DNA of 64,000 nucleotides from Escherichia coli (GTDB taxonomy: Bacteria; Pseudomonadota; Gammaproteobacteria; Enterobacterales; Enterobacteriaceae), in the NCBI RefSeq assembly GCF_044324875.1, contig NZ_CP172185.1. One strand, 5' to 3'. The notes beneath the pieces are model-generated. The model was not told where the DNA came from, ran no database searches, and worked only from the letters and a program-made list of their open reading frames with translations. Both the position numbers and the translations under genes were made by a program. This document shows positions 19,011 through 54,381 of this stretch, in pieces (positions within the stretch are counted from its first letter, which is position 1; every line of letters starts with the position of its first letter).

Positions 19011-20129
19011 TTAGTTAGCCGGGAGCATAACGAATAAAACGTATCCCACCAGCGCCGCCCACAACAGCATCGGTATCGAATAAAGATGAAAACGCCACCA
19101 GATACGGCGATCGTTCGCCATCCGTAGCGCAATCAAATTTGCCAGCGATCCGGGTAATAAACCAAAGCCCCCCACGTTTACCGCCCATGCCAGCAGCAAC
19201 GACGGTGGCACATAGTTCAGCAACAATATGGTACTCGGCACGTTACTGATCACCTGCGATAAACCGATTGCCGTTAACCATAATCCGGGTTCGGATAAAT
19301 GACTCACGTTACTTAACCCCCCCTGCAAAGCTGGCAGTTGGGTTAGTAAATGGACGTCGATAAACATCGCCATAAACACCAGCAGCAGCGTCCAGTCCAC
19401 ACTCAACACCACGCGACGTGCCAGCAGCGCAAAGCCCGCCGCCACAATCACCAGTCCCCACAGCTCTTGTTTTAACTCCAGCGCCGTCAGAAAGACGATA
19501 TACAGCCCCAGACAACTCCACACCAGCCGCGGTTTCCACTCCGGAGTTTGCACCCCCGTATGGTATTGCAGTGCCTTTCCAGGGAAACAACACCAGCACA
19601 GGAGCAGGAGCGTCAGCATCATTGCGCCAGCCAGTGGTGCCATTTGGGCAATAAATCCGGCAAACGAAAGATCAGAACGTCCCCAGATAAGAATATTTTG
19701 CGGGTTGCCAATTGGCGTCAGTAGCGAACCAGCGTTGACTGCCAGCGCTTCAAAAATAATCAGCCGATTAACCGGGATCTCACACAGTCTTTTTAGCGTG
19801 ATAGTCAGCGGAACAACAATAAACAGCGCGACATCGTTGGTCAGAAAGGTAGAAAGCAGCGCCGCCGCCAGCACCATAAACATCGCCAGCCGACGCTCCG
19901 TAGCAAAGCGGCGCACCATTTTGCGCCCCAGCACATCAAAATAACCGCTTAACTCCACACCTTTGGTCAGCAGCATCAGGCCGCTTAAGGTGATGATGGT
20001 GTGCCAGTCGATAGCAGCAGGCCAGGATTTCGGTGCAAAAGGCACGAAAAAGCTTAATCCGATACCAACAAGAATTAATAACTGAAAAAAACGATCACCT
20101 TGCAGCGTGCGTAAAAAAGGCAGGCTCAT
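19011..20129 (-). CDS. ybiR: Inner-membrane transporter YbiR (ArsB/NhaD-like permease)
   Basis: 372-aa polytopic membrane ORF; overlaps the mntR stop, consistent with an mntR-ybiR operon. Confidence 0.85.
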
Positions 20130-20593
20130 TTGGCACCGTGTTTCTGGGTAAACAAACGAAAGGCATCCAGCGTCTCTTCACTAACATGGTGCTCCATGCC
20201 TTCCGCGTCGCGACGGGCGATTTCCGGACTGACGCCCAACACCAACAAGAAATTTTCGACTATCTGATGTCGCTCGCGGCTTTCCTGCGCCAGTTTCTCT
20301 CCTTCTGCCGTTAAAAACACGCCACGCCAGGGGATCATTTCAATCAGCCCCATGGTTGCCAGCCGCTTAAGCATTTTCGCCACTGTCGGTTGCGAAACCC
20401 CCAGACGAGCAGCCATGTCCACCTGACGAGCTTCCCCCACTTCCCTGATCAAGTCAGAAATCAGCTCAACGTAATCATCAATAAGCTCGCGCCGATGCGC
20501 CTCTCTGACCTGGCGGAACCCTTCAACGTGCTCTTCCACGTTCACTAACTGCGTCACTTTTTTTGCTGTTGGCGTACCTGCGCGACGACTCAT
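20126..20593 (-). CDS. mntR: Manganese-responsive transcriptional regulator MntR (DtxR family)
   Basis: 155-aa ORF with a DtxR-type HTH ([14 protein letters not shown]). Confidence 0.9.
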
Positions 20594-20703
20594 TGTGCTT
20601 CCTCATTATGGTGACGCATACCTAGCGTTCTCATTTCGTGCGCACATTGTAAACCAGAGTTGCGAAGGTACAAAAAATTAACGTTTTAGCAATAGCTATA
20701 TAA

Positions 20704-20719
20704 TATAGCCTGTGCTATA
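20704..20719. promoter_or_regulatory. Putative MntR operator upstream of mntS
   Basis: Palindrome TATAGC-CTGT-GCTATA, resembling the MntR box at the sitA promoter in this window (38521-38558). Confidence 0.5.
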
Positions 20720-20778
20720 TCTGTATGTAATGCAATCATCCCTCAAGGATCGACGGGATTAGCAAGTCAGGAGGTCTT

Positions 20779-20907
20779 ATGAATGAGTTCAAGAGGTGTA
20801 TGCGCGTGTTTAGTCATTCTCCCTTTAAAGTACGGTTAATGCTGCTCTCTATGTTGTGCGATATGGTCAACAACAAACCGCAGCAAGATAAACCTTCCGA
20901 TAAATAG
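20779..20907 (+). CDS. mntS: Small protein MntS (42 aa), manganese homeostasis
   Basis: 42-codon ORF MNEFKRCMRVFSHSPFKVRLMLLSMLCDMVNNKPQQDKPSDK with an RBS (GGAGG) 6 nt upstream; not in the ORF track because it is short. Confidence 0.85.
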   Translation: MNEFKRCMRVFSHSPFKVRLMLLSMLCDMVNNKPQQDKPSDK

Positions 20908-44352: not shown

Positions 44353-44820
44353 ATGATTTTTTATCTCATTGACAAAGAAGTTAAGGACCGAGAGATGAGT
44401 TTTAATACCACACACGAGAAATCTGAAATCTATCGTCTGATCCTTAGAGAAAGTGAACTCATTACAGCATGGGTAAAATCTGGAGACACGCCGTCAGCAG
44501 TTTACGGAAAACTACGTGATAAAAACCCGGATATAATCTTTTCGATAAATGGCTTTTTATATAACCTACGTAACTTTAACTATGCACTATATGAAACAGC
44601 CACAAAGAACAAAAGCAAAACAAGGTTAATAATACTCAACCATTATGATGATATTGCATCAGCTATCCGTGCTGGTCATACGCTTAAAGGTGTTTACAAA
44701 CTCGTATGCCCACATATAACATATAACTGTTTTATTACACAACTCAGGAAAACCTATCCTGACCTGCATTCTCAGGGTAAAGCGAATCGCAGCAACAAAA
44801 ACAGAATAATAGCTAACTGA
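44353..44820 (+). CDS. Hypothetical protein (141-155 aa) in an AT-rich region, possible C-terminal HTH
   Basis: ORF with alternative start MSFNTTHEK at 44395; the segment ASAIRAGHTLKGVYKLVCPHITYNCFITQLRK resembles a resolvase-type HTH; low GC. Confidence 0.4.
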   Translation: MIFYLIDKEVKDREMSFNTTHEKSEIYRLILRESELITAWVKSGDTPSAVYGKLRDKNPDIIFSINGFLYNLRNFNYALYETATKNKSKTRLIILNHYDDIASAIRAGHTLKGVYKLVCPHITYNCFITQLRKTYPDLHSQGKANRSNKNRIIAN

Positions 44821-45989: not shown

Positions 45990-46811
45990 TTATAAAGAAA
46001 TGGCAGAATACTCTGTGTTTATCCATGAGTGTTCCTTTTCCCAGGTGAATATCCATTTACGTACTGGTCCGGCCATCACGTTAAGGTAATAACTGTCATA
46101 CCCGGCCATCGTCGCCACCGGGTGGTACCCTTTCGGCACCATGACCACGTCACGGTTATAGACCGCCATACATTCATCAAGTGTGCGGTCATCGGTATAC
46201 ACCCGCTGCATGCAGAACCCCTGTTCCGGGTTGAGGCGATGGTAATAGGTCTCCTCCAGATAGCTCTCCTGAGGCGGGTTATTCGTATCGTGTTTATGGC
46301 TCGGGTACGAACTGGTACAGCCTTCGTTGGTCCAGACCTCGACGACCAGCAGGCTGTCAGCGGGCTTGTCTTCCGGCAAAATATTATGCACATAACGCTG
46401 GTTGTGGCCGTTACCGCGCGCTTCGCCATCGATATCCTGAGGTGCAATCAACCGCGTCGGGTATGTCCCTTTTCCCGGAGCGGTACAGACTGCCAGCTCC
46501 AGTTTCGTCAGCGCCTTCACCTGCACTGCCTCCTGCGGGGTGACGTAAACCGCCCAAGGTTTGATGCGCTCGAACGGGCTCATCCGCTCCCCGATATCAG
46601 TAAACTGTGCAGAAGGAGTGCTGATGAAAGCGCGCCCGGCCACAAGCACCAGACAGCGCTCTTCACTGACAGCGGGCAGCGTCAGTTGCTGCCCTTCCTC
46701 AAGTTCATAGGCCTCAAAGCCAACATATCCCCATCCGGCGCTTTCCGGCGTGACAGACTGAGTCCGCCCCTCAGCGTTCGGCTGTTGCCAGCGTGATAAC
46801 AGACGTGACAT
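45990..46811 (-). CDS. iolB: 5-deoxy-glucuronate isomerase IolB
   Basis: 273-aa cupin-like ORF at the 3' end of the iol gene array. Confidence 0.75.
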   Translation of the reverse strand: MSRLLSRWQQPNAEGRTQSVTPESAGWGYVGFEAYELEEGQQLTLPAVSEERCLVLVAGRAFISTPSAQFTDIGERMSPFERIKPWAVYVTPQEAVQVKALTKLELAVCTAPGKGTYPTRLIAPQDIDGEARGNGHNQRYVHNILPEDKPADSLLVVEVWTNEGCTSSYPSHKHDTNNPPQESYLEETYYHRLNPEQGFCMQRVYTDDRTLDECMAVYNRDVVMVPKGYHPVATMAGYDSYYLNVMAGPVRKWIFTWEKEHSWINTEYSAISL

Positions 46812-46820
46812 GTCACCTCC

Positions 46821-47711
46821 TCAGATAAGCCCGGCGTCGCGCGCCAGGCGGCTCAGATTGTTATATCCCAGACGGGCGTAGGTCAGCGGATGGGCGATCG
46901 CCGGGTCCTGTTCAGCCTCCACCACCAGCCAACCGTGATAATCCTGCGTTTTCAGCAGTTGCATAATCGGCGGATAATCCACGCAGCCGTCACCCGGCAC
47001 GGTAAACACGCCGCTCAGCACCGCGTCGAGGAAGCTGGTTTTACGGTTTTTGACGTCCGCCAGCACGTCGGCGCGCACATCTTTGCAGTGAACATGATTG
47101 ATGCGCGATGCCCATCGCTGTGCCACCGCCAGCGGATCGGCCCCGGCAAAGGTCAGGTGGCCGGTATCCAGCAGTAAACCAACCTCCTCACCCGTGTGGA
47201 GCATCAGGTTGTCCACGTCTTGAGCGGACTCAATCACCGTGCCCATATGATGGTGGTAAGCAATCTGTACCCCCTGTTGCTGCGTATAGCGGGCGAACAC
47301 GGTGAGCTTCTCACCATACTCTTTCCAGCATTCCTGCGGGAAACGTGGGCGCAGGTGAACCGGCGTCTGCTGCTCACCGTGAATGCAGCCACTCACTTCC
47401 GCAAAAACCAGTACTTTTGCACCCAGCTCTCGCAGCAGCGTCAGATGCGACTGCACAGCAGCAATCTCGTCCTCTACACTGCGTTCCAACAGGCGGCCGG
47501 AATACCAGCCGGAGACCAACTGCAGGTCGTGGCGCTGCAAAATGGGCCCGAGCAGGCGCGCTTCTCGCGGGAATTTATTGCCCAGTTCGAAGCCAGCAAA
47601 ACCGGCCTCTTTCCCTTCACTCAGGCAGGTCTCCAGAGATGTCTCCGCGCCCAGTGAAGGCAGATCATCGTTCGTCCACGTCAGCGGGTTGATGCCCAGT
47701 TGTACACTCAT
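46821..47711 (-). CDS. iolE: Inosose dehydratase IolE (xylose-isomerase-like TIM barrel)
   Basis: Sugar-phosphate isomerase/epimerase fold; start set at MSVQLGINPLTW, just after the iolC stop. Confidence 0.75.
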   Translation of the reverse strand: MSVQLGINPLTWTNDDLPSLGAETSLETCLSEGKEAGFAGFELGNKFPREARLLGPILQRHDLQLVSGWYSGRLLERSVEDEIAAVQSHLTLLRELGAKVLVFAEVSGCIHGEQQTPVHLRPRFPQECWKEYGEKLTVFARYTQQQGVQIAYHHHMGTVIESAQDVDNLMLHTGEEVGLLLDTGHLTFAGADPLAVAQRWASRINHVHCKDVRADVLADVKNRKTSFLDAVLSGVFTVPGDGCVDYPPIMQLLKTQDYHGWLVVEAEQDPAIAHPLTYARLGYNNLSRLARDAGLI

Positions 47712-47722
47712 TGTCGTCTCCA

Positions 47723-49627
47723 TTATGCGTGTCCGCGCTCGCGCCACCAGGCGATAAGCTGCAGGTAGTTGTCCCGGATGCGCGCCACCAGCTGCGCATC
47801 GTCAATATCGTGTTTCAGCCATGCGCGGGAGGCATCGCCAAACAGCGTGCGCCCCACGGCGAAGCCTTTCACCAGCGCCTGCCCCGCGGCAGCTTTGAAG
47901 TCGGCACGCAGCTGTTCCGCCGGAGCATCCAGACCGAGGATCACCACGCCGCGGCAGTGCGGGTCCCGGCGCGCGATAATCTCGCTCAGTGCCGTCCAGC
48001 CTTCGGCGGAGAGCGGCGGCAGTTTCCACCAGTCGGGGTAAATGCCAAGGTTGTAGAAGCGGGAAATGGCACGCAGATAAAGTTCGTCACTGCGCGGCAT
48101 AGTGGCGGGTAATATCACCTCCAGCAGCAGTTCATGTCCGGACTGACAGCAGGCGTGGTACACCTCGGCGATTTTCTGCTCCTGCTCCAGACGCAAGCCG
48201 TGGGCATCTTCCGGATGGAAAAAGACCAGGCACTTCACCACATGCTCCTGCGGCCAACTGATAAGCTGGGTACCAATGTTACCGTGCTCCATCTCCAGCG
48301 GACGCGAGCCTGGCAGTTCAATGGGACGACCAATCCACCACCCTTCGCCGGTAATGGCGTTCAGCGCATCCTGACCAAAGGTGCCATCGCACAGCAGGCC
48401 GGCTTTCCCCTCCAGCCCGGCAGAGCTTGCCGCCTCTCGGCTGGCCTGCAGGATCAGCTGTTTCAGCGCCGGAATACGCTTAAGCGACGCGCCGCACTGC
48501 AGCGCCATATCTTCCAGTTGACTGCGGTGATCGAACGCCATCACGCACAGCTCCGGCCATTCGCGGCGGCGGGTGGTCACCCGGTGCAGATGGTTAAGAC
48601 GCGGGTCAATGTCCGGGCGCGGAACGAGCGCGGCGCGGGAGAGGTAATCATCCAGCTCAATTTTGCTCGGCATCGCCGGTGCACAGCCGTGGCGCGAGAC
48701 CACCAGCGCCCCACAGGCGTTGGCGTAGCGGCACGCCTGCTCCCAGCCCTCGTCGTTCAGGTAACCGCGCAGCAGGCCAGACATAAACGCATCTCCCGCG
48801 CCAAGGACGTTAAGCACCTCCACACGCACGCCGGTCACCGTCAGGCCGTCATCCAGCCGAGGTGGAATGGCATCGGTATACACCGAACAGCCCAGCGCGC
48901 CGCGCTTGCAAACCAGTGTCGCCTTGCTGACGTGGCGCACCTGTGCCAGCGCCTGCAACGTATCGGTGCTGCCCCCCGCAATGTGAAACTCCTCTTCGGT
49001 GCCGACAACGACGTCGAAAAGGTGTAGCACCTCCTGAAGTTCACGGGTAACCTGTTCGGCAACGATAAAACGCGTTTCGCCGTCTCCTAGAGAGGTTAGT
49101 CCCCACAGCACCGGACGGTAGTCGATGTCCAGCACCGTGCGCACGCCGTGACGGCGGGCGTAATTCAGCGCCGTCAGCACCGCCTCGCGGGTCTGCGGGT
49201 GAGAAAGGTGAGTCCCGGTGATGGCAATACACCGTGCGGAGGCAATGTAGCTTTCGTCCACATCGCTGGCAGTAATCGCCATATCCGCGCAGTTATCGCG
49301 ATAAAAAATCAGAGGAAAGGTGTCCCGGTCTTTAATGCCGAGTAGCACCAGCGCCGTGAGGCGTTCTTTATCGGTGATCAGATGGCTGGTATCGCAGCCC
49401 ACCTGGTTTAACTCTTCCCGCAGGAAGCGCCCCATATGTTCATCGCCAACGCGCGCCAGCATTGACGAGCGTAAGCCCTGACGCGCGGTACCGTACGCCA
49501 CGTTGCCGGACGAGCCGCCGAGATATTTGGCGAAGCTCGACACATCCTCCAGGCGGGCACCAATTTGCTGGCTGTAGAGGTCTACCGCCACGCGGCCCAT
49601 GCATATCACATCAAACTGCTTTTCCAC
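47723..49627 (-). CDS. iolC: 5-dehydro-2-deoxygluconokinase IolC (PfkB kinase) fused to a C-terminal DUF2090/aldolase-like domain
   Basis: 634-aa ORF; N-terminal ribokinase-family motifs (GGSSGNVAYG, GAGDAF); long C-terminal extension as in enterobacterial IolC. Confidence 0.75.
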   Translation of the reverse strand: MEKQFDVICMGRVAVDLYSQQIGARLEDVSSFAKYLGGSSGNVAYGTARQGLRSSMLARVGDEHMGRFLREELNQVGCDTSHLITDKERLTALVLLGIKDRDTFPLIFYRDNCADMAITASDVDESYIASARCIAITGTHLSHPQTREAVLTALNYARRHGVRTVLDIDYRPVLWGLTSLGDGETRFIVAEQVTRELQEVLHLFDVVVGTEEEFHIAGGSTDTLQALAQVRHVSKATLVCKRGALGCSVYTDAIPPRLDDGLTVTGVRVEVLNVLGAGDAFMSGLLRGYLNDEGWEQACRYANACGALVVSRHGCAPAMPSKIELDDYLSRAALVPRPDIDPRLNHLHRVTTRRREWPELCVMAFDHRSQLEDMALQCGASLKRIPALKQLILQASREAASSAGLEGKAGLLCDGTFGQDALNAITGEGWWIGRPIELPGSRPLEMEHGNIGTQLISWPQEHVVKCLVFFHPEDAHGLRLEQEQKIAEVYHACCQSGHELLLEVILPATMPRSDELYLRAISRFYNLGIYPDWWKLPPLSAEGWTALSEIIARRDPHCRGVVILGLDAPAEQLRADFKAAAGQALVKGFAVGRTLFGDASRAWLKHDIDDAQLVARIRDNYLQLIAWWRERGHA

Positions 49628-49639
49628 GTTGAACCCTCT

Positions 49640-50785
49640 TCAGACAATGTCATTCACGTTCAGCCAGAGGCCCTGCTGGTGTGAGAGTGCGATGGCATCC
49701 AGCACGCGCGAGACCTTCCAGCCCTCTTCGAAGTCCGGCCACATCGGTGCGTCGGTGGCAATGCCGTCTACCAGATCACGCACTTCCACCGTTTTTTGAT
49801 CGTTAAAGCCGATACCATGACCTGCGCCCATGCAAAACGCGCCGTAATCCGGGTGTGCCGGACCGACCAACAGTGTCTGGAACCCCTGACGGTTCACCGG
49901 ATCATCATGCAGATAGAGCTTTATCTCTGCCATCCGCTCTTGGGTAAAACTGATCGCTCCTTTGGTACCAGTAATGACGTATGACAGCCCCATCTTGCGG
50001 CCGCAGGCGACGCGGGAAGTTTCAATGACGCCCTGCGCCCCGCCCGCAAAGCGCACCATCGCGTGGGCCTGATCTTCATTTTCCACGGTGACCATTTCCG
50101 ACGATCCGGCCTTTGCCGGACGTGCCGGCACCACAATTTTCAGATCGCCACAGACCTGCTCAATCTCTCCCACCAGATACTGGGCCATATTGACGATATG
50201 TGCCGCCAGGTCACCCAGAGCCCCCAGTCCGGCGGTCTCTTTAAAACAGTGCCAGTGAATAGGGGAAAGCGGGTCGGCCATATAGTCTTCGTTGTGGGTT
50301 CCGTAGAAGTGGATCACCTCACCAATTTCGCCGCACGCAATAATCTCTTTCGCCAACTGTGCCGTCGGGTTTTTCATGTAATTGAAACCCACCAGCGTTT
50401 TCACCCCTGCCCGCTTCGCAGCGTCGACCATCTCACGCGCGTCGTGGGCATTCAGTGCCAGCGGCTTTTCCGAATAGACGTGCTTGCCGTGGCGGATCGC
50501 CTCCAGCGCCATCTCTTTGTGAAGATGGTTAGGGGAGCAAATATCCACCACATCAATGGCCGGGTCGGCCACGAGCACCCGCCAGTCTCCGGTTGAGCGA
50601 TTGAAGCCAAACGCCTGCGCGCGTTCTGCCGCCAGCGCCGGATTCACCTCAGCCACCATCTCGCGCACCAGTTTGCCGCGCAGATTGAACACCGTCGGTG
50701 CCTGGGCATAGGCAATGGCATGCGCCTTGCCAATATACCCGGTGCCAATCAATCCAATACGAACCTCTTTCATCGTGATCCTCAC
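49640..50785 (-). CDS. iolG: Gfo/Idh/MocA-family oxidoreductase (inositol 2-dehydrogenase-like)
   Basis: N-terminal Rossmann motif IGLIGTGYIGKAH; start may be the internal MKEV (50773). Confidence 0.7.
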   Translation of the reverse strand: MRITMKEVRIGLIGTGYIGKAHAIAYAQAPTVFNLRGKLVREMVAEVNPALAAERAQAFGFNRSTGDWRVLVADPAIDVVDICSPNHLHKEMALEAIRHGKHVYSEKPLALNAHDAREMVDAAKRAGVKTLVGFNYMKNPTAQLAKEIIACGEIGEVIHFYGTHNEDYMADPLSPIHWHCFKETAGLGALGDLAAHIVNMAQYLVGEIEQVCGDLKIVVPARPAKAGSSEMVTVENEDQAHAMVRFAGGAQGVIETSRVACGRKMGLSYVITGTKGAISFTQERMAEIKLYLHDDPVNRQGFQTLLVGPAHPDYGAFCMGAGHGIGFNDQKTVEVRDLVDGIATDAPMWPDFEEGWKVSRVLDAIALSHQQGLWLNVNDIV

Positions 50786-51810
50786 AGTGCGCCGCGACGG
50801 CTCTTGGCATAGGTGTCGAATGCCACCGCCAGAACGATAATTAATCCGGTGATAATTTGCTGGTAGTAGGCCGAGACGTTCATCAGTACCAGGCCATTAA
50901 TCAGAATGCCCATGATGATGGAGCCGATGATAGTGCCGCCGATACGCCCATATCCCCCCATCAACGACGTGCCGCCAATAACCACCGAGGCAATAACACG
51001 CAGCTCAAAGGAGATCCCGGCAACCGCCTCAGCGCTCCCCAGACGAGCGCTCAGGATGAAGCCCGCCAGCCCCGCCAGACAGCCAATCAGCACATAGACG
51101 CTAACCAGCACACGCTTCACGTTTACCCCAGCCAGACGTGCCGCCTCCGGGTTGCCACCGATTGCATAGACGAAGCGCCCCCAACGGGTTTTATGCAGTG
51201 CCAGATAACCACCAATGGCAACGATGGCGAAGATCCAGATCGGAATGGAGATGCCGAGCAATTCCCCTCGTCCCCACCAGCGATAACCCTGATCGAAGCC
51301 GGCAATCGGCGCACCGTCGTTAATCACGAGCGTCAGACCACGCCAGATGGTCATCCCGCCAAGGGTGACGATGAACGGTGGTAGGCGCAGGCGGGTGACG
51401 CCCAAACCGTGCAGGAAGCCAATCGCTGTACCCATGGTCAGACAAATCCCCAGCCCAATCAGCCAGCTCATACCGCCCCAAGCGTTCGGATCGACTGTGG
51501 TGAAATTGTCGCCTTTGATCACGTACGCCGCTGTCATGGCGCACACTGCCAGAATAGAGCCCACGGAGAGGTCGATCCCAGCGGTCAGAATGACGAAGGT
51601 CATCCCCACGGCCATGATTCCGTAGATGGAGACTTCGGTCAGGATGTTGAAAATATTGCGTTCAGAGAAAAAATTACTGTTCTGCGACTGAAAGAAGATC
51701 AGCAGCAGGATCATGAAAATCAGTACCCCGAAGCGCTCGAAGAAGGCAATGGGATCGATGCGTCCGGCGCGTTTTACCGGGACCTGCGTTTTAGGAATCA
51801 TCTGCGTCAT
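50782..51810 (-). CDS. Sugar ABC transporter permease (RbsC-like)
   Basis: 342-aa polytopic membrane protein; third gene of a binding-protein/ATPase/permease cassette. Confidence 0.8.
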   Translation of the reverse strand: MTQMIPKTQVPVKRAGRIDPIAFFERFGVLIFMILLLIFFQSQNSNFFSERNIFNILTEVSIYGIMAVGMTFVILTAGIDLSVGSILAVCAMTAAYVIKGDNFTTVDPNAWGGMSWLIGLGICLTMGTAIGFLHGLGVTRLRLPPFIVTLGGMTIWRGLTLVINDGAPIAGFDQGYRWWGRGELLGISIPIWIFAIVAIGGYLALHKTRWGRFVYAIGGNPEAARLAGVNVKRVLVSVYVLIGCLAGLAGFILSARLGSAEAVAGISFELRVIASVVIGGTSLMGGYGRIGGTIIGSIIMGILINGLVLMNVSAYYQQIITGLIIVLAVAFDTYAKSRRGAL

Positions 51811-51821
51811 GAGAAACTCCG

Positions 51822-53369
51822 TTATGCCGCGTTCAGGGCGTTGTGGTTGATAGCCATCATCGTCATCAGCCGTTCTTCGTTAGCGTCGTCACCGTGGATC
51901 TCGCCAGTTAACCGGCCTTCACTAAGGGTGATGATCCGGTCAGACACCGCCATCACTTCAGGCAGATCGGAGGAGATCACGATCACCGCCACGCCCTTTT
52001 TCGCCATATCAAACAGCACCTGGTGCACTTCCGATTTGGTTCCAACGTCGATGCCACGCGTCGGCTCATCGACAATCAACACCCGTGGATTGAGCGCCAT
52101 GCAGCGCGCGAGGATAACTTTCTGCTGGTTGCCGCCAGAGAGCTTACGCACCTCTTGCGTGCTGTTGACCATTTTGATCTGCAGCGCCTGGCGGTAGGAC
52201 TCAATCAGGTCGTCCTCTTTGCGGGTATTCACAAACCAGCGCCACTGCAACAGCGAGGAGAGGCAGGAGAGCGACAGGTTGTAGCGAATCGACAGACCCA
52301 GCACCGCCCCCTCTTTTTTGCGATCTTCCGGCACCAGCGCCAGCCCTTGCTCCAGCGCATAAAGTGGGTCACGCGGCTGGTACGGCACGCCGTCCAGTTC
52401 AAAGCTGCCGGTGGTAAAGGCGTCGGCGCCAAACAGGCAGCGCGCTACCTCAGTACGACCAGCCCCCACCAGCCCAGCGATACCCAGAACTTCCCCAGCA
52501 TGGACGTGAAAACTGATGTCATGCAGGGCGATGCCGTGTGGATCCAGCGGCGGTTTTTCCCGGCTTAACCCCTTCACCGACAAACGGACAGGTTTGTCTT
52601 CATGGTGGGTTTCGCTGGCAGGGCGGCGGTTAAAGGCCACATCACGCCCTACCATCAGGCGGATCAACTGCTCTACGTTCGTCTCCGTCACTGCGCCGGT
52701 GCCGGTGAAACGGCCATCCTGGAAAACGGTGAAACGATCGCAAAGCTGGAAAACTTCATGCAGACGGTGAGTAACGTAAATAATGCTCACGCCGCGGTTT
52801 TTAAGCTCCCGCACCACGCGGTGCAGGCTTTCCACCTCGCTGTCACTCAGGGCGGCGGAGGGTTCATCCATGATGATCAGCCTGGCATTGAGGGTCAGCG
52901 CCCGGGCAATCTCCACCATCTGCTGCTGGGCCACGCTCAGACGGGCGACTGGCGTGGTGGGTGCGACATTCAGTTGCAGATAATCGAGAATCACCTGCGC
53001 TTCCTGATTGACCGCTTTTTCGTCGACGATCAGGTTACGTTTACGCGGTTCGCGTCCGAGAAACATGTTTTCCGCAACGGTCATATTGGGCAGCAGGTTG
53101 AATTCCTGATAGATGGTGATAATGCCCTTGTTCTGCCGTTCTACCGGGGAGTCGTCCACCGGCAGCGTTTCGCCATTGAACCAGATCTCCCCGCGCGTTT
53201 GTGGCTGTGCGCCCGCGAGTGCCTTCAACAGCGTGGATTTCCCAGCGCCGTTTTCGCCCAGCAAAGCGTGAATTTCACCCGTGCCGACGGTGAGCTGGGC
53301 GCTGCTCAGCGCCCATACGCCGGAAAAGCTTTTTGCCAGGTCGGTTACTTTCAGTAAGGGTTGCGACAT
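51822..53369 (-). CDS. Sugar ABC transporter ATP-binding protein (duplicated nucleotide-binding domains, RbsA-like)
   Basis: Walker A GENGAGKST and a second degenerate nucleotide-binding domain; 515 aa. Confidence 0.85.
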   Translation of the reverse strand: MSQPLLKVTDLAKSFSGVWALSSAQLTVGTGEIHALLGENGAGKSTLLKALAGAQPQTRGEIWFNGETLPVDDSPVERQNKGIITIYQEFNLLPNMTVAENMFLGREPRKRNLIVDEKAVNQEAQVILDYLQLNVAPTTPVARLSVAQQQMVEIARALTLNARLIIMDEPSAALSDSEVESLHRVVRELKNRGVSIIYVTHRLHEVFQLCDRFTVFQDGRFTGTGAVTETNVEQLIRLMVGRDVAFNRRPASETHHEDKPVRLSVKGLSREKPPLDPHGIALHDISFHVHAGEVLGIAGLVGAGRTEVARCLFGADAFTTGSFELDGVPYQPRDPLYALEQGLALVPEDRKKEGAVLGLSIRYNLSLSCLSSLLQWRWFVNTRKEDDLIESYRQALQIKMVNSTQEVRKLSGGNQQKVILARCMALNPRVLIVDEPTRGIDVGTKSEVHQVLFDMAKKGVAVIVISSDLPEVMAVSDRIITLSEGRLTGEIHGDDANEERLMTMMAINHNALNAA

Positions 53370-53420
53370 CAGCCTGCTCCTTATTTATGGGGAGCCGCCC
53401 GTACGGCGGCTCCAGACAAA

Positions 53421-54350
53421 TCAGTTACCGGCCTCAGCAATACGCTCAGCCTGTTGCAGGTTCTCTTTGGTGATCAGCGTCGGCGGATAGTCCGCCCCGG
53501 TGATAGTTTTTTTCTCACGCACGTTAGCCACCAGTTGGCTCATCGCCGTGGTCACCGCAAAGCCGGGACGCTGATCCGCCGTAACCGCCAGCCAGCCGTC
53601 GCGCACGCGGGCCAGTGCTTCCGGTACCGCATCAAAACCGGTGACCAGGATTTCACCCGGTTTCACACCCTGACTCTGCAGCGCTTCAATCGCCCCCAGC
53701 GCCATATCATCGTTGGCAGAGAGGATCACCTGAGGACGTTTTGGCAGCGACGGCAAAACGCTTTCGACAATGCGCATCCCTTCCGAGCGCATCCAGTTGC
53801 CGGTCTGATCGGCGACGATCTTGTACATATCCCCGCCAGCCTTCAGGCTGTCACGGATCCCTTTGGTGCGTTCAATGTTGGAGGAGGAACCCGGTTGACC
53901 GGTCAACAGAATGATCTCCGCGCCGTTGGGGAATTTGGTTTTGACGAAGTCGCCAATCGCCTGGCCGCCCTTGTAGTTGTTGGCACCAAAGTGCGGCACT
54001 TTTTTCTGGCTGTCGACAGAGCGGTCAAGCGTAACGACCGGCAGCTTCGTATCCTGAATTTCATCTACCGCACTGGAGACCGCGTTCACATCGTTCGGGG
54101 AGACGATAAAGCCCTGCGCACCACGGGTGATGGCGTTTTCCAGGTCAGCCACCTGCTTCGGTGAGCTGCCCTGACCGTCCAGTACCTGAAGTTTCACCCC
54201 CATCTCTTTTGCGGCTTTCACCGCCGTGCGCTGCATGTGAACTTCAAACGGCATGGCCAGGTTTGGCGTACTGAAAACAATTTGCTCGTTTTCGGCTATG
54301 GCGGCCCCGGATGTCATGGCGATTAGGGCGGCTAAGATCAGTTTTTTCAT
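53421..54350 (-). CDS. Periplasmic sugar-binding protein (RbsB-like; probable inositol-binding)
   Basis: Start set at MKKLILAALIAMTSGAAIA signal peptide; type-1 periplasmic binding fold. Confidence 0.8.
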   Translation of the reverse strand: MKKLILAALIAMTSGAAIAENEQIVFSTPNLAMPFEVHMQRTAVKAAKEMGVKLQVLDGQGSSPKQVADLENAITRGAQGFIVSPNDVNAVSSAVDEIQDTKLPVVTLDRSVDSQKKVPHFGANNYKGGQAIGDFVKTKFPNGAEIILLTGQPGSSSNIERTKGIRDSLKAGGDMYKIVADQTGNWMRSEGMRIVESVLPSLPKRPQVILSANDDMALGAIEALQSQGVKPGEILVTGFDAVPEALARVRDGWLAVTADQRPGFAVTTAMSQLVANVREKKTITGADYPPTLITKENLQQAERIAEAGN

Positions 54351-54381
54351 TATTATGTCTCTCTGTGTAGGGTTGTTGTGT

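Follow-up and report, generated by a model that had tools for sequence, protein, structure and literature searches.

Abutting MntR boxes in a common layout at the mntS promoter and at the promoter of an orphan sitA in Escherichia coli

The window analyzed in this study, a 64-kb stretch of E. coli DNA, contained mntR (20126–20593, minus strand), which encodes a Mn-responsive repressor of the DtxR family, and mntS (20779–20907, plus strand), which encodes a polypeptide of 42 amino acid residues. Both genes were found as open reading frames and in the RefSeq annotation of identical DNA. They were divergent and separated by a 185-bp spacer, inside which the operator described below was located. 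MntR of the window was 100% identical to the crystallized MntR of E. coli (PDB 2H09); the cognate regulator is thus encoded in the same genome. The mntR-mntS stretch was core E. coli DNA, with 5421 of 5426 complete genomes containing it, and the mntS locus of the window was 100% identical to those of thousands of E. coli genomes. MntS inhibits the exporter MntP and, as reported by Wright et al. (2023/2024), is what remains of a SitA signal peptide.

It had been noticed that matching TATAGC-N4-GCTATA palindromes are found upstream of mntS and upstream of sitA. The palindrome TATAGCNNNNGCTATA indeed matched exactly twice in the window, at 20704–20719 (TATAGCCTGTGCTATA) and 38521–38536 (TATAGCTTATGCTATA), and never in 100 dinucleotide-preserving shuffles of the window. 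The core ATAGC-N4-GCTAT with up to one mismatch was found six times, vs. 1.4 expected. Two of these cores were upstream of mntS (20686, with one mismatch, and 20705), two were upstream of sitA (38522 and 38541, both perfect), one was in the dps promoter (24802) and one, with one mismatch, started at 44653 and likely arose by chance. The last core (ATTGCATCAGCTAT, 44653–44666) is a lone MntR-like core in a region whose G+C content is 33%, and it is probably no MntR site, given that about 1.4 such matches per window are expected by chance. Only the mntS and sitA cores formed box pairs less than 60 bp apart, 20686/20705 and 38522/38541, and the offset of each pair was exactly 19 bp. No box pair with a 19-bp offset was found in 200 shuffles. 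As the shuffles, 100 for the exact palindrome and 200 for the pairs, gave none, a chance origin of the palindromes and pairs was rejected. The dyad centers were at 20692.5 and 20711.5 at mntS and at 38528.5 and 38547.5 at sitA, 19 bp apart in both cases. Because each palindrome was a member of an abutting pair, the observation of single palindromes had captured half of what is present.

At mntS, the promoter-distal box A (TTTAGCAATAGCTATA, 20685–20700) had one mismatch in its left arm, and the promoter-proximal box B (TATAGCCTGTGCTATA, 20704–20719) was the palindrome noticed previously. Together with the flanking A/T, box B formed an 18-bp dyad at 20703–20720. In the 16-bp register, the operator read TTTAGCAATAGCTATA - taa - TATAGCCTGTGCTATA and its end was 59 nt from the ATG. 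The range first given for the palindrome, 20686–20720, takes in both mntS boxes, beyond the perfect one alone. Both boxes were also found in the same register in the mntS promoters of Salmonella, Citrobacter, Klebsiella, Kosakonia, Kluyvera, and Enterobacter. In these six genera, the left arm of box A was degenerate and the right arm was perfect throughout. Across all seven genera, box B was nearly invariant, its CTGT spacer included, and the geometry of the tandem pair was fixed. These boxes correspond to the paired MntR sites that overlap the mntS promoter of E. coli, as Waters et al. (2011) are cited in PMC11275975, where the spacing of the paired sites is described as identical to that of the cooperative mneP/mneS operators of Bacillus subtilis.

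A scan with the consensus sigma-70 promoter identified no plus-strand promoter at mntS or sitA, and its only two candidates were on the minus strand of the mntR-mntS spacer. A promoter-like ATTACA-18-TATATT on that strand, at 20702–20731, overlaps the tandem operator; if it is used, mntR would be autoregulated. In addition, the motif CATTGTAAACCA (20645–20656), which lies upstream of mntR, was kept from E. coli to Rahnella.

The sitA promoter of the window contained three elements. A Fur-box-like sequence (ACTAATGATAATCATTTGC, 38496–38514) overlapped the putative -35 element. It was identical to the Fur consensus GATAATGATAATCATTATC at 15 of 19 positions, and no match with three or fewer mismatches was found. 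The distal box 1 (TATAGCTTATGCTATA, 38521–38536) was the palindrome noticed previously and its right arm overlapped the putative -10 element. Box 2, the sequence recognized as a full MntR box (AAACATAGCCGTTGCTATGTTT, 38537–38558; 38540–38555 in the 16-bp register), adjoined box 1, with the centers 19 bp apart. In the 16-bp register, the operator read TATAGCTTATGCTATA - aaa - CATAGCCGTTGCTATG and its end was 35 nt from the ATG. The -35 and -10 elements would be TTGCAT (38511–38516) and TATAAA (38533–38538), respectively; this assignment is an inference, given that the consensus sigma-70 scan called nothing there. The arms of box 2 were the same as those of the mntH box of K-12 (AAACATAGCCTTTGCTATGTTT).

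Five further chromosomal and plasmid sitA alleles of E. coli and one metagenomic locus also possessed both boxes, 35–36 nt from the ATG. Among the six E. coli alleles, including that of the window, box 1 was perfect in two and had one left-arm mismatch in four. The window allele of the promoter was rare: only 16 of 20,395 records were at least 99% identical to it, and most alleles of E. coli chromosomes and IncF plasmids were 87–92% identical. The sister strain ECCNB12-2 had two copies of the sitA promoter. The palindromes fit the enterobacterial MntR box, their arms being those of the mntH and dps boxes, but the positions of the two palindromes are not equivalent, since the mntS copy is the proximal box and the sitA copy is the distal box, with the full box as its partner.

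MntR-Mn is reported to act as a repressor of mntS, mntH, and dps and as an activator of mntP. The dps gene is also in the window, and a single perfect MntR box (CATAGCCGGTGCTATA, 24801–24816) was found 49 nt 5' of its ATG (24865). The box overlaps a -10-like hexamer, TATACT. As control of dps by MntR has been published (Yamamoto et al., 2011), the window contains the regulator gene along with three promoters of the MntR regulon. In K-12, mntH possessed one perfect box, and mntP possessed two boxes that were 40 bp apart and about 380–420 bp 5' of the ATG. The arms ATAGC-N4-GCTAT were common to the mntS and sitA boxes and to those of mntH, mntP, and dps. Given that the mntH and dps boxes are single and those of mntP are 40 bp apart, the abutting pair was limited to mntS and sitA within the set of E. 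coli MntR targets that was checked.

The gene served by the second operator, sitA (38591–39505, plus strand), was an intact open reading frame of 304 codons for a SitA of the short signal peptide type. This SitA was 97% identical to the main SitA cluster of E. coli and belonged to the Pfam family ZnuA. Of sitB, only codons 1–51 remained (39505–39657, plus strand), as identified by tblastn and annotated as a pseudogene by RefSeq in sister genomes, and tblastn found neither sitC nor sitD anywhere in the 64-kb window. As an ABC importer operon, the locus thus has an intact SitA, and full SitB, SitC, and SitD are missing downstream. An IS66-family element (tnpC, tnpB, and tnpA; 40167–42592, minus strand) was located just 3' of the point at which sitB is truncated (39657), with transposase fragments in between. 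With sitB cut short and sitCD gone, the sitA of the island is an orphan, and whatever MntR controls there is no working transporter. The same configuration, in which sitB is cut and IS66 remnants are present, was found in nine complete E. coli genomes, most of which were recorded from chicken or poultry. In annotations, this orphan sitA is not to be counted as a working Sit system for virulence or fitness.

The mosaic island that carries sitA opens directly after the stop codon of glnH (26519–27929 region) with a P4-type tyrosine integrase gene (26736–27929), and it contains IS21-, IS66-, and IS110-type elements. In the window, glnP does not come after glnH. No tRNA gene was found at the island boundary or anywhere in the window. 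Strain GPEC1040 has a near-identical island elsewhere in its chromosome, where yhfS is the neighbor and the integrase protein is another one. Relative to the sister strain ECCNB12-2, a 2.6-kb IS21-family element (33930–36568; an IstA-like protein of 548 and an IstB-like protein of 332 amino acid residues) is an insertion. Moreover, the segment 10973–16224 of the window (about 5.2 kb) has no long match in ECCNB12-2, which is otherwise collinear and has only about 270 bp there. A G+C-rich block (0.54–0.60) at 45990–60246 holds a cluster resembling those for myo-inositol catabolism, with genes for IolB/KduI, PfkB plus DUF2090, GFO/IDH oxidoreductases, an ABC ATPase, a TPP enzyme, an aldehyde dehydrogenase, and an RpiR regulator. 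This cluster is followed on its 3' side by transposase genes of the IS110 and rve types (61021–61791 and 62370–63392), and the island appears to extend to the end of the window.

A scan of GTDB species genomes for SitA returned at least 80 loci/species, and E. coli and Salmonella were not among the matches listed. The sequence P0004 was considered as the SitA of Salmonella SPI-1 and rejected because its metagenomic context was unrelated. Among the loci listed, all 22 of Enterobacterales possessed two boxes, with up to two mismatches each, and the offset was exactly 19 bp and no other. In these 22 promoters, the arms were nearly invariant, while the spacers and the linker were variable, and most of the promoters also contained a Fur-like block (tgataatNatttNcattt) 5' of the MntR boxes. 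The 19-bp box pair was found at only 1 of the 58 non-enterobacterial loci listed. This locus (L079), of Pseudomonas oryzihabitans, has boxes about 117 and 98 nt 5' of the start of the SitA match with one mismatch each; the operon may have been transferred horizontally along with its operator. None of the 80 SitA loci listed had an mntR within a distance of 3 kb. As the pair was kept in all enterobacterial sitA promoters examined, the operator belongs to the sit operon's own promoter, moves with the operon and is no adaptation to the host. The original observation that mntR is in the same window, about 18 kb from sitA, was correct; the proposal that the acquired sitA had become wired into the host MntR regulon was not supported by the match, as the two-box operator is a conserved, integral part of sitA promoters.

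An unbiased scan of metagenomes for the 16-mer of box B, TATAGCCTGTGCTATA, identified 80 loci. At all 34 loci that had a partner box, the partner was at exactly +19 or -19. At the 22 loci with the partner at -19, a divergent mntR was found in all 21 whose contigs reach far enough, and the operator was followed by a small MntS-like ORF (19 loci) or a full sitA (3 loci). At the 12 loci with the partner at +19, no mntR was nearby and 10 were followed by a full sitA of the short signal peptide type. The other two had no sitA match, and their contigs end soon after the operator. The remaining 46 loci had an isolated 16-mer; 45 of them were without a related gene nearby and one (L165) was next to a divergent mntR homolog. 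Thus, the neighbors of the tandem loci indicate that tandem MntR operators mark sitA or its relic. The perfect 16-mer with the CTGT spacer was the proximal box in the mntR-linked promoters and the distal box in the unlinked sitA promoters.

Several mntR-linked metagenomic loci departed from the common gene types. At L166 (1005–1270), mntR and the operator (ACTTTGCATTGGCTATGGAG-TATAGCCTGTGCTATA) both resembled those of Rahnella, and the only gene downstream was an ORF of 65 codons whose product begins MSKIRRVMHLYSHSPFYLRLMLLEMIVALFRGNKPA. The product was 54% identical to the SitA signal peptide of Rahnella vs. 46% to MntS of E. coli, and this ORF is possibly an intermediate or the outcome of an independent transition from signal peptide to small protein. 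At L114, L154, and L167, the tandem operators preceded divergent ORFs for 33–48 amino acid residues that kept only SPF-LRL-LL (e.g., MKKPLLLQLLCRSPFTLRLMLLEMLTAEKKSGG). A tblastn search with MntS of E. coli missed these three ORFs. Finally, L110 and L145 had the same tandem operator followed by a full-length sitA whose signal peptide contains an RRRR run (MSGLFRRRRVLAGALAAAAS) and looks twin-arginine-like; it is a third type of signal peptide in the mntR-linked group.

Wright et al. (2023/2024) reported homology between MntS and the long signal peptide found in some mntR-linked SitAs, such as those of Rahnella and Sodalis, and concluded that MntS arose by loss of the remaining sitA. Their preprint argues from the protein and the gene neighborhood; it does not mention operators, and the single use of the word promoter in it refers to mntP. 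As there was no mntR near the 80 SitA loci listed, the mntR-linked sitA clade was reached via Rahnella plasmids. On plasmid pRAHAQ01 of Rahnella aceris, mntR is divergent from sitABCD, and SitA begins with MEKGQSILKLFSYSPFRLRLMLVG, an MntS-like signal peptide. The motif SPF-LRLML was common to MntS and this signal peptide. The intergenic region contained CATTGTAAACCA, a degenerate box A (CTTTGCCTTGGCTATG), a gag linker, and a box B identical to that of E. coli (TATAGCCTGTGCTATA). The alignment between the mntR-sitA region of Rahnella and the mntR-mntS region of E. coli was collinear, with CATTGTAAACCA, box A, and the box B 16-mer followed by the ribosome-binding site and the ATG. SitA of the window was 63% identical to SitA of Rahnella, and the promoters of the island sitA and of mntS had no obvious similarity outside the operator.

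Taken as a whole, these results are best explained, with a probability of roughly 0.85, by paired MntR operators that have the same layout at mntS and sitA because both promoters are of the sitA type. Each palindrome would be a half-unit of two abutting inverted repeats of 16–18 bp, TATAGC-N4-GCTATA, joined by a 3-bp linker. When Mn is plentiful, two MntR dimers would fill the pair, probably in a cooperative manner by analogy with B. subtilis. At mntS, the bound dimers would cover the -10 element and the start site region, and transcription of mntS would be off. At sitA, Fur would sit over the -35 element, box 1 over the spacer and the -10 element, and box 2 over the start site, by which control by iron would be added. 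The mntS promoter would have outlived the coding region of an ancestral, mntR-linked sitA, which decayed until the signal-peptide-derived MntS was left. The island promoter would be that of a mobile, mntR-unlinked sit operon that carried its own module of Fur, MntR, and MntR sites, and in the strain of the window this second sit operon would have been cut down to the orphan sitA. Reviews that cite experiments report that MntR represses mntS and sitABCD. According to such reviews, MntR and Fur repress sitABCD in Salmonella Typhimurium (Ikeda et al., 2005) and Shigella flexneri (Runyen-Janecky et al., 2006). A full-text literature search, whose coverage ended short of these two papers, found no description of two MntR boxes at sitA.

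In B. subtilis, MntR dimers bind cooperatively to adjacent, abutting 18-bp sites at mneP and mneS, as resolved by cryo-EM (PMC11275975). Of the interface residues of B. subtilis MntR, R24, D27, R58, and G59 were conserved in E. coli as R56, D59, R90, and G91, and Y22, E55, K20, and V61 were replaced by E54, I87, V52, and F93, respectively. Given that the key Y22-E55 pair is replaced by E54/I87, cooperativity is not assured in E. coli, and cooperative binding of MntR at sitA is likely by analogy with B. subtilis.

How the two promoters came to be alike can be explained in another way, in which each gained its box pair independently because each needed the same repressor to act cooperatively. 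The two window promoters resemble each other in the box arms alone, the perfect CTGT-spacer 16-mer occupies opposite positions in the mntR-linked and unlinked promoters, and the same spacing is used by mneP/mneS of B. subtilis, which are distant and certainly independent. These features favor convergence. Against it, the pair was restricted to mntS and sitA among the E. coli MntR targets checked, and in the metagenomes all 34 tandem loci precede sitA or an MntS-like ORF where the gene is identifiable (two had no match). Moreover, the two clades have SitA proteins with 63% identity, and the Rahnella intermediate joins one clade directly to mntS. Convergence is thus considered unlikely, although it is the most probable of the alternatives. 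We infer common descent of the two promoter modules of the window from their architecture and the 63% identity of SitA.

The nature of the individual palindromes can be questioned as well. At sitA, box 2 (38537–38558) might be the only working box, with the upstream palindrome being essentially a -10 region that is A/T-rich by necessity. The right arm of box 1 does overlap the TATAAA assigned as -10, and common E. coli alleles have a mismatch in its left arm (TATAGG or TATTGC). A -10 hexamer alone, however, would not preserve the G/C of a left arm located 10 bp 5' of it, and both arms were kept at the 19-bp offset in 22 of 22 listed enterobacterial promoters while the 4-bp spacer was free to vary, which makes a single working box improbable. 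Least probable is that the palindromes are RNA or DNA hairpins, such as an attenuator, a terminator, or a recombination site, instead of protein sites. A terminator scan flagged 38537–38558 as a 9-pair stem with a T-rich tail, but this segment lies in the promoter region 5' of the gene served and not where a transcription unit ends, and the arms are invariant instead of co-varying. For its position and lack of covariation, the terminator reading was rejected. Furthermore, a search of the mntS/RybA locus against Rfam matched no family, and identical arms are found in the single boxes of dps and mntH, the former being a published MntR target and the latter being repressed by MntR according to reviews.

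The collinearity of the operator with that of Rahnella provides support at the DNA level for the published proposal that MntS arose from the signal peptide of a transporter and retained the control circuit of its parent. On balance, we favor the interpretation that the abutting 19-bp MntR operator is a molecular fossil of sitA-type promoters and that the mntS promoter has come down intact, with each of its boxes, from a sit operon since lost, but with clearly less confidence than the paired layout itself. If this is true, the window shows the same process twice, as an ancient relic at mntR-mntS and, about 18 kb off, as a recently acquired and already eroded sit operon, and metagenomic intermediates such as L166 would trace repeated or stepwise transitions from signal peptide to small protein under unchanged MntR control. 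The island sitA is what is left of a second sit operon, which is decaying next to the relic of the first. Moreover, as the 19-bp pairing is strict across genera, it is a natural system in which cooperative binding of MntR in Gram-negative bacteria could be tested cleanly. The presence of MntR boxes at mntS and regulation of sit by MntR are already known, and no new wiring is found here; the small extension is support from the operators for a sitA origin of the mntS promoter.

Compared with known systems, the mntS half of these results is a rediscovery. The promoter of mntS (rybA) in K-12 is the same locus, for which two abutting sites overlapping the promoter are described (PMC11275975), and no difference from it was found. 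The mntR-linked sitABCD of the Rahnella/Sodalis type is also related to the mntS arrangement; Rahnella retains the full transporter operon, whereas E. coli retains only the ORF derived from the signal peptide. The sitABCD promoters of Salmonella and Shigella are similar to the island promoter in that a Fur box, for which the island promoter has the Fur-like sequence, is followed by MntR boxes for dual repression by Fe and Mn, and sit promoters of E. coli and Shigella are 87–92% identical to the window allele. Different from these promoters, the window allele was seldom found, its box 1 is perfect, and the gene that it drives is an orphan sitA. The operators of mntH, dps, and mntP have the same arms as those of mntS and sitA, but none of them has the 19-bp abutting pair. 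Finally, the spacing of adjacent sites at mneP/mneS of B. subtilis is the same as that at mntS and sitA, and MntR of E. coli has kept four of the interface residues, but not the Y22-E55 pair. The mneP/mneS arrays, however, activate efflux genes from upstream and need three to four sites, whereas the operators of mntS and sitA consist of two sites that would overlap the core promoter and serve repression.
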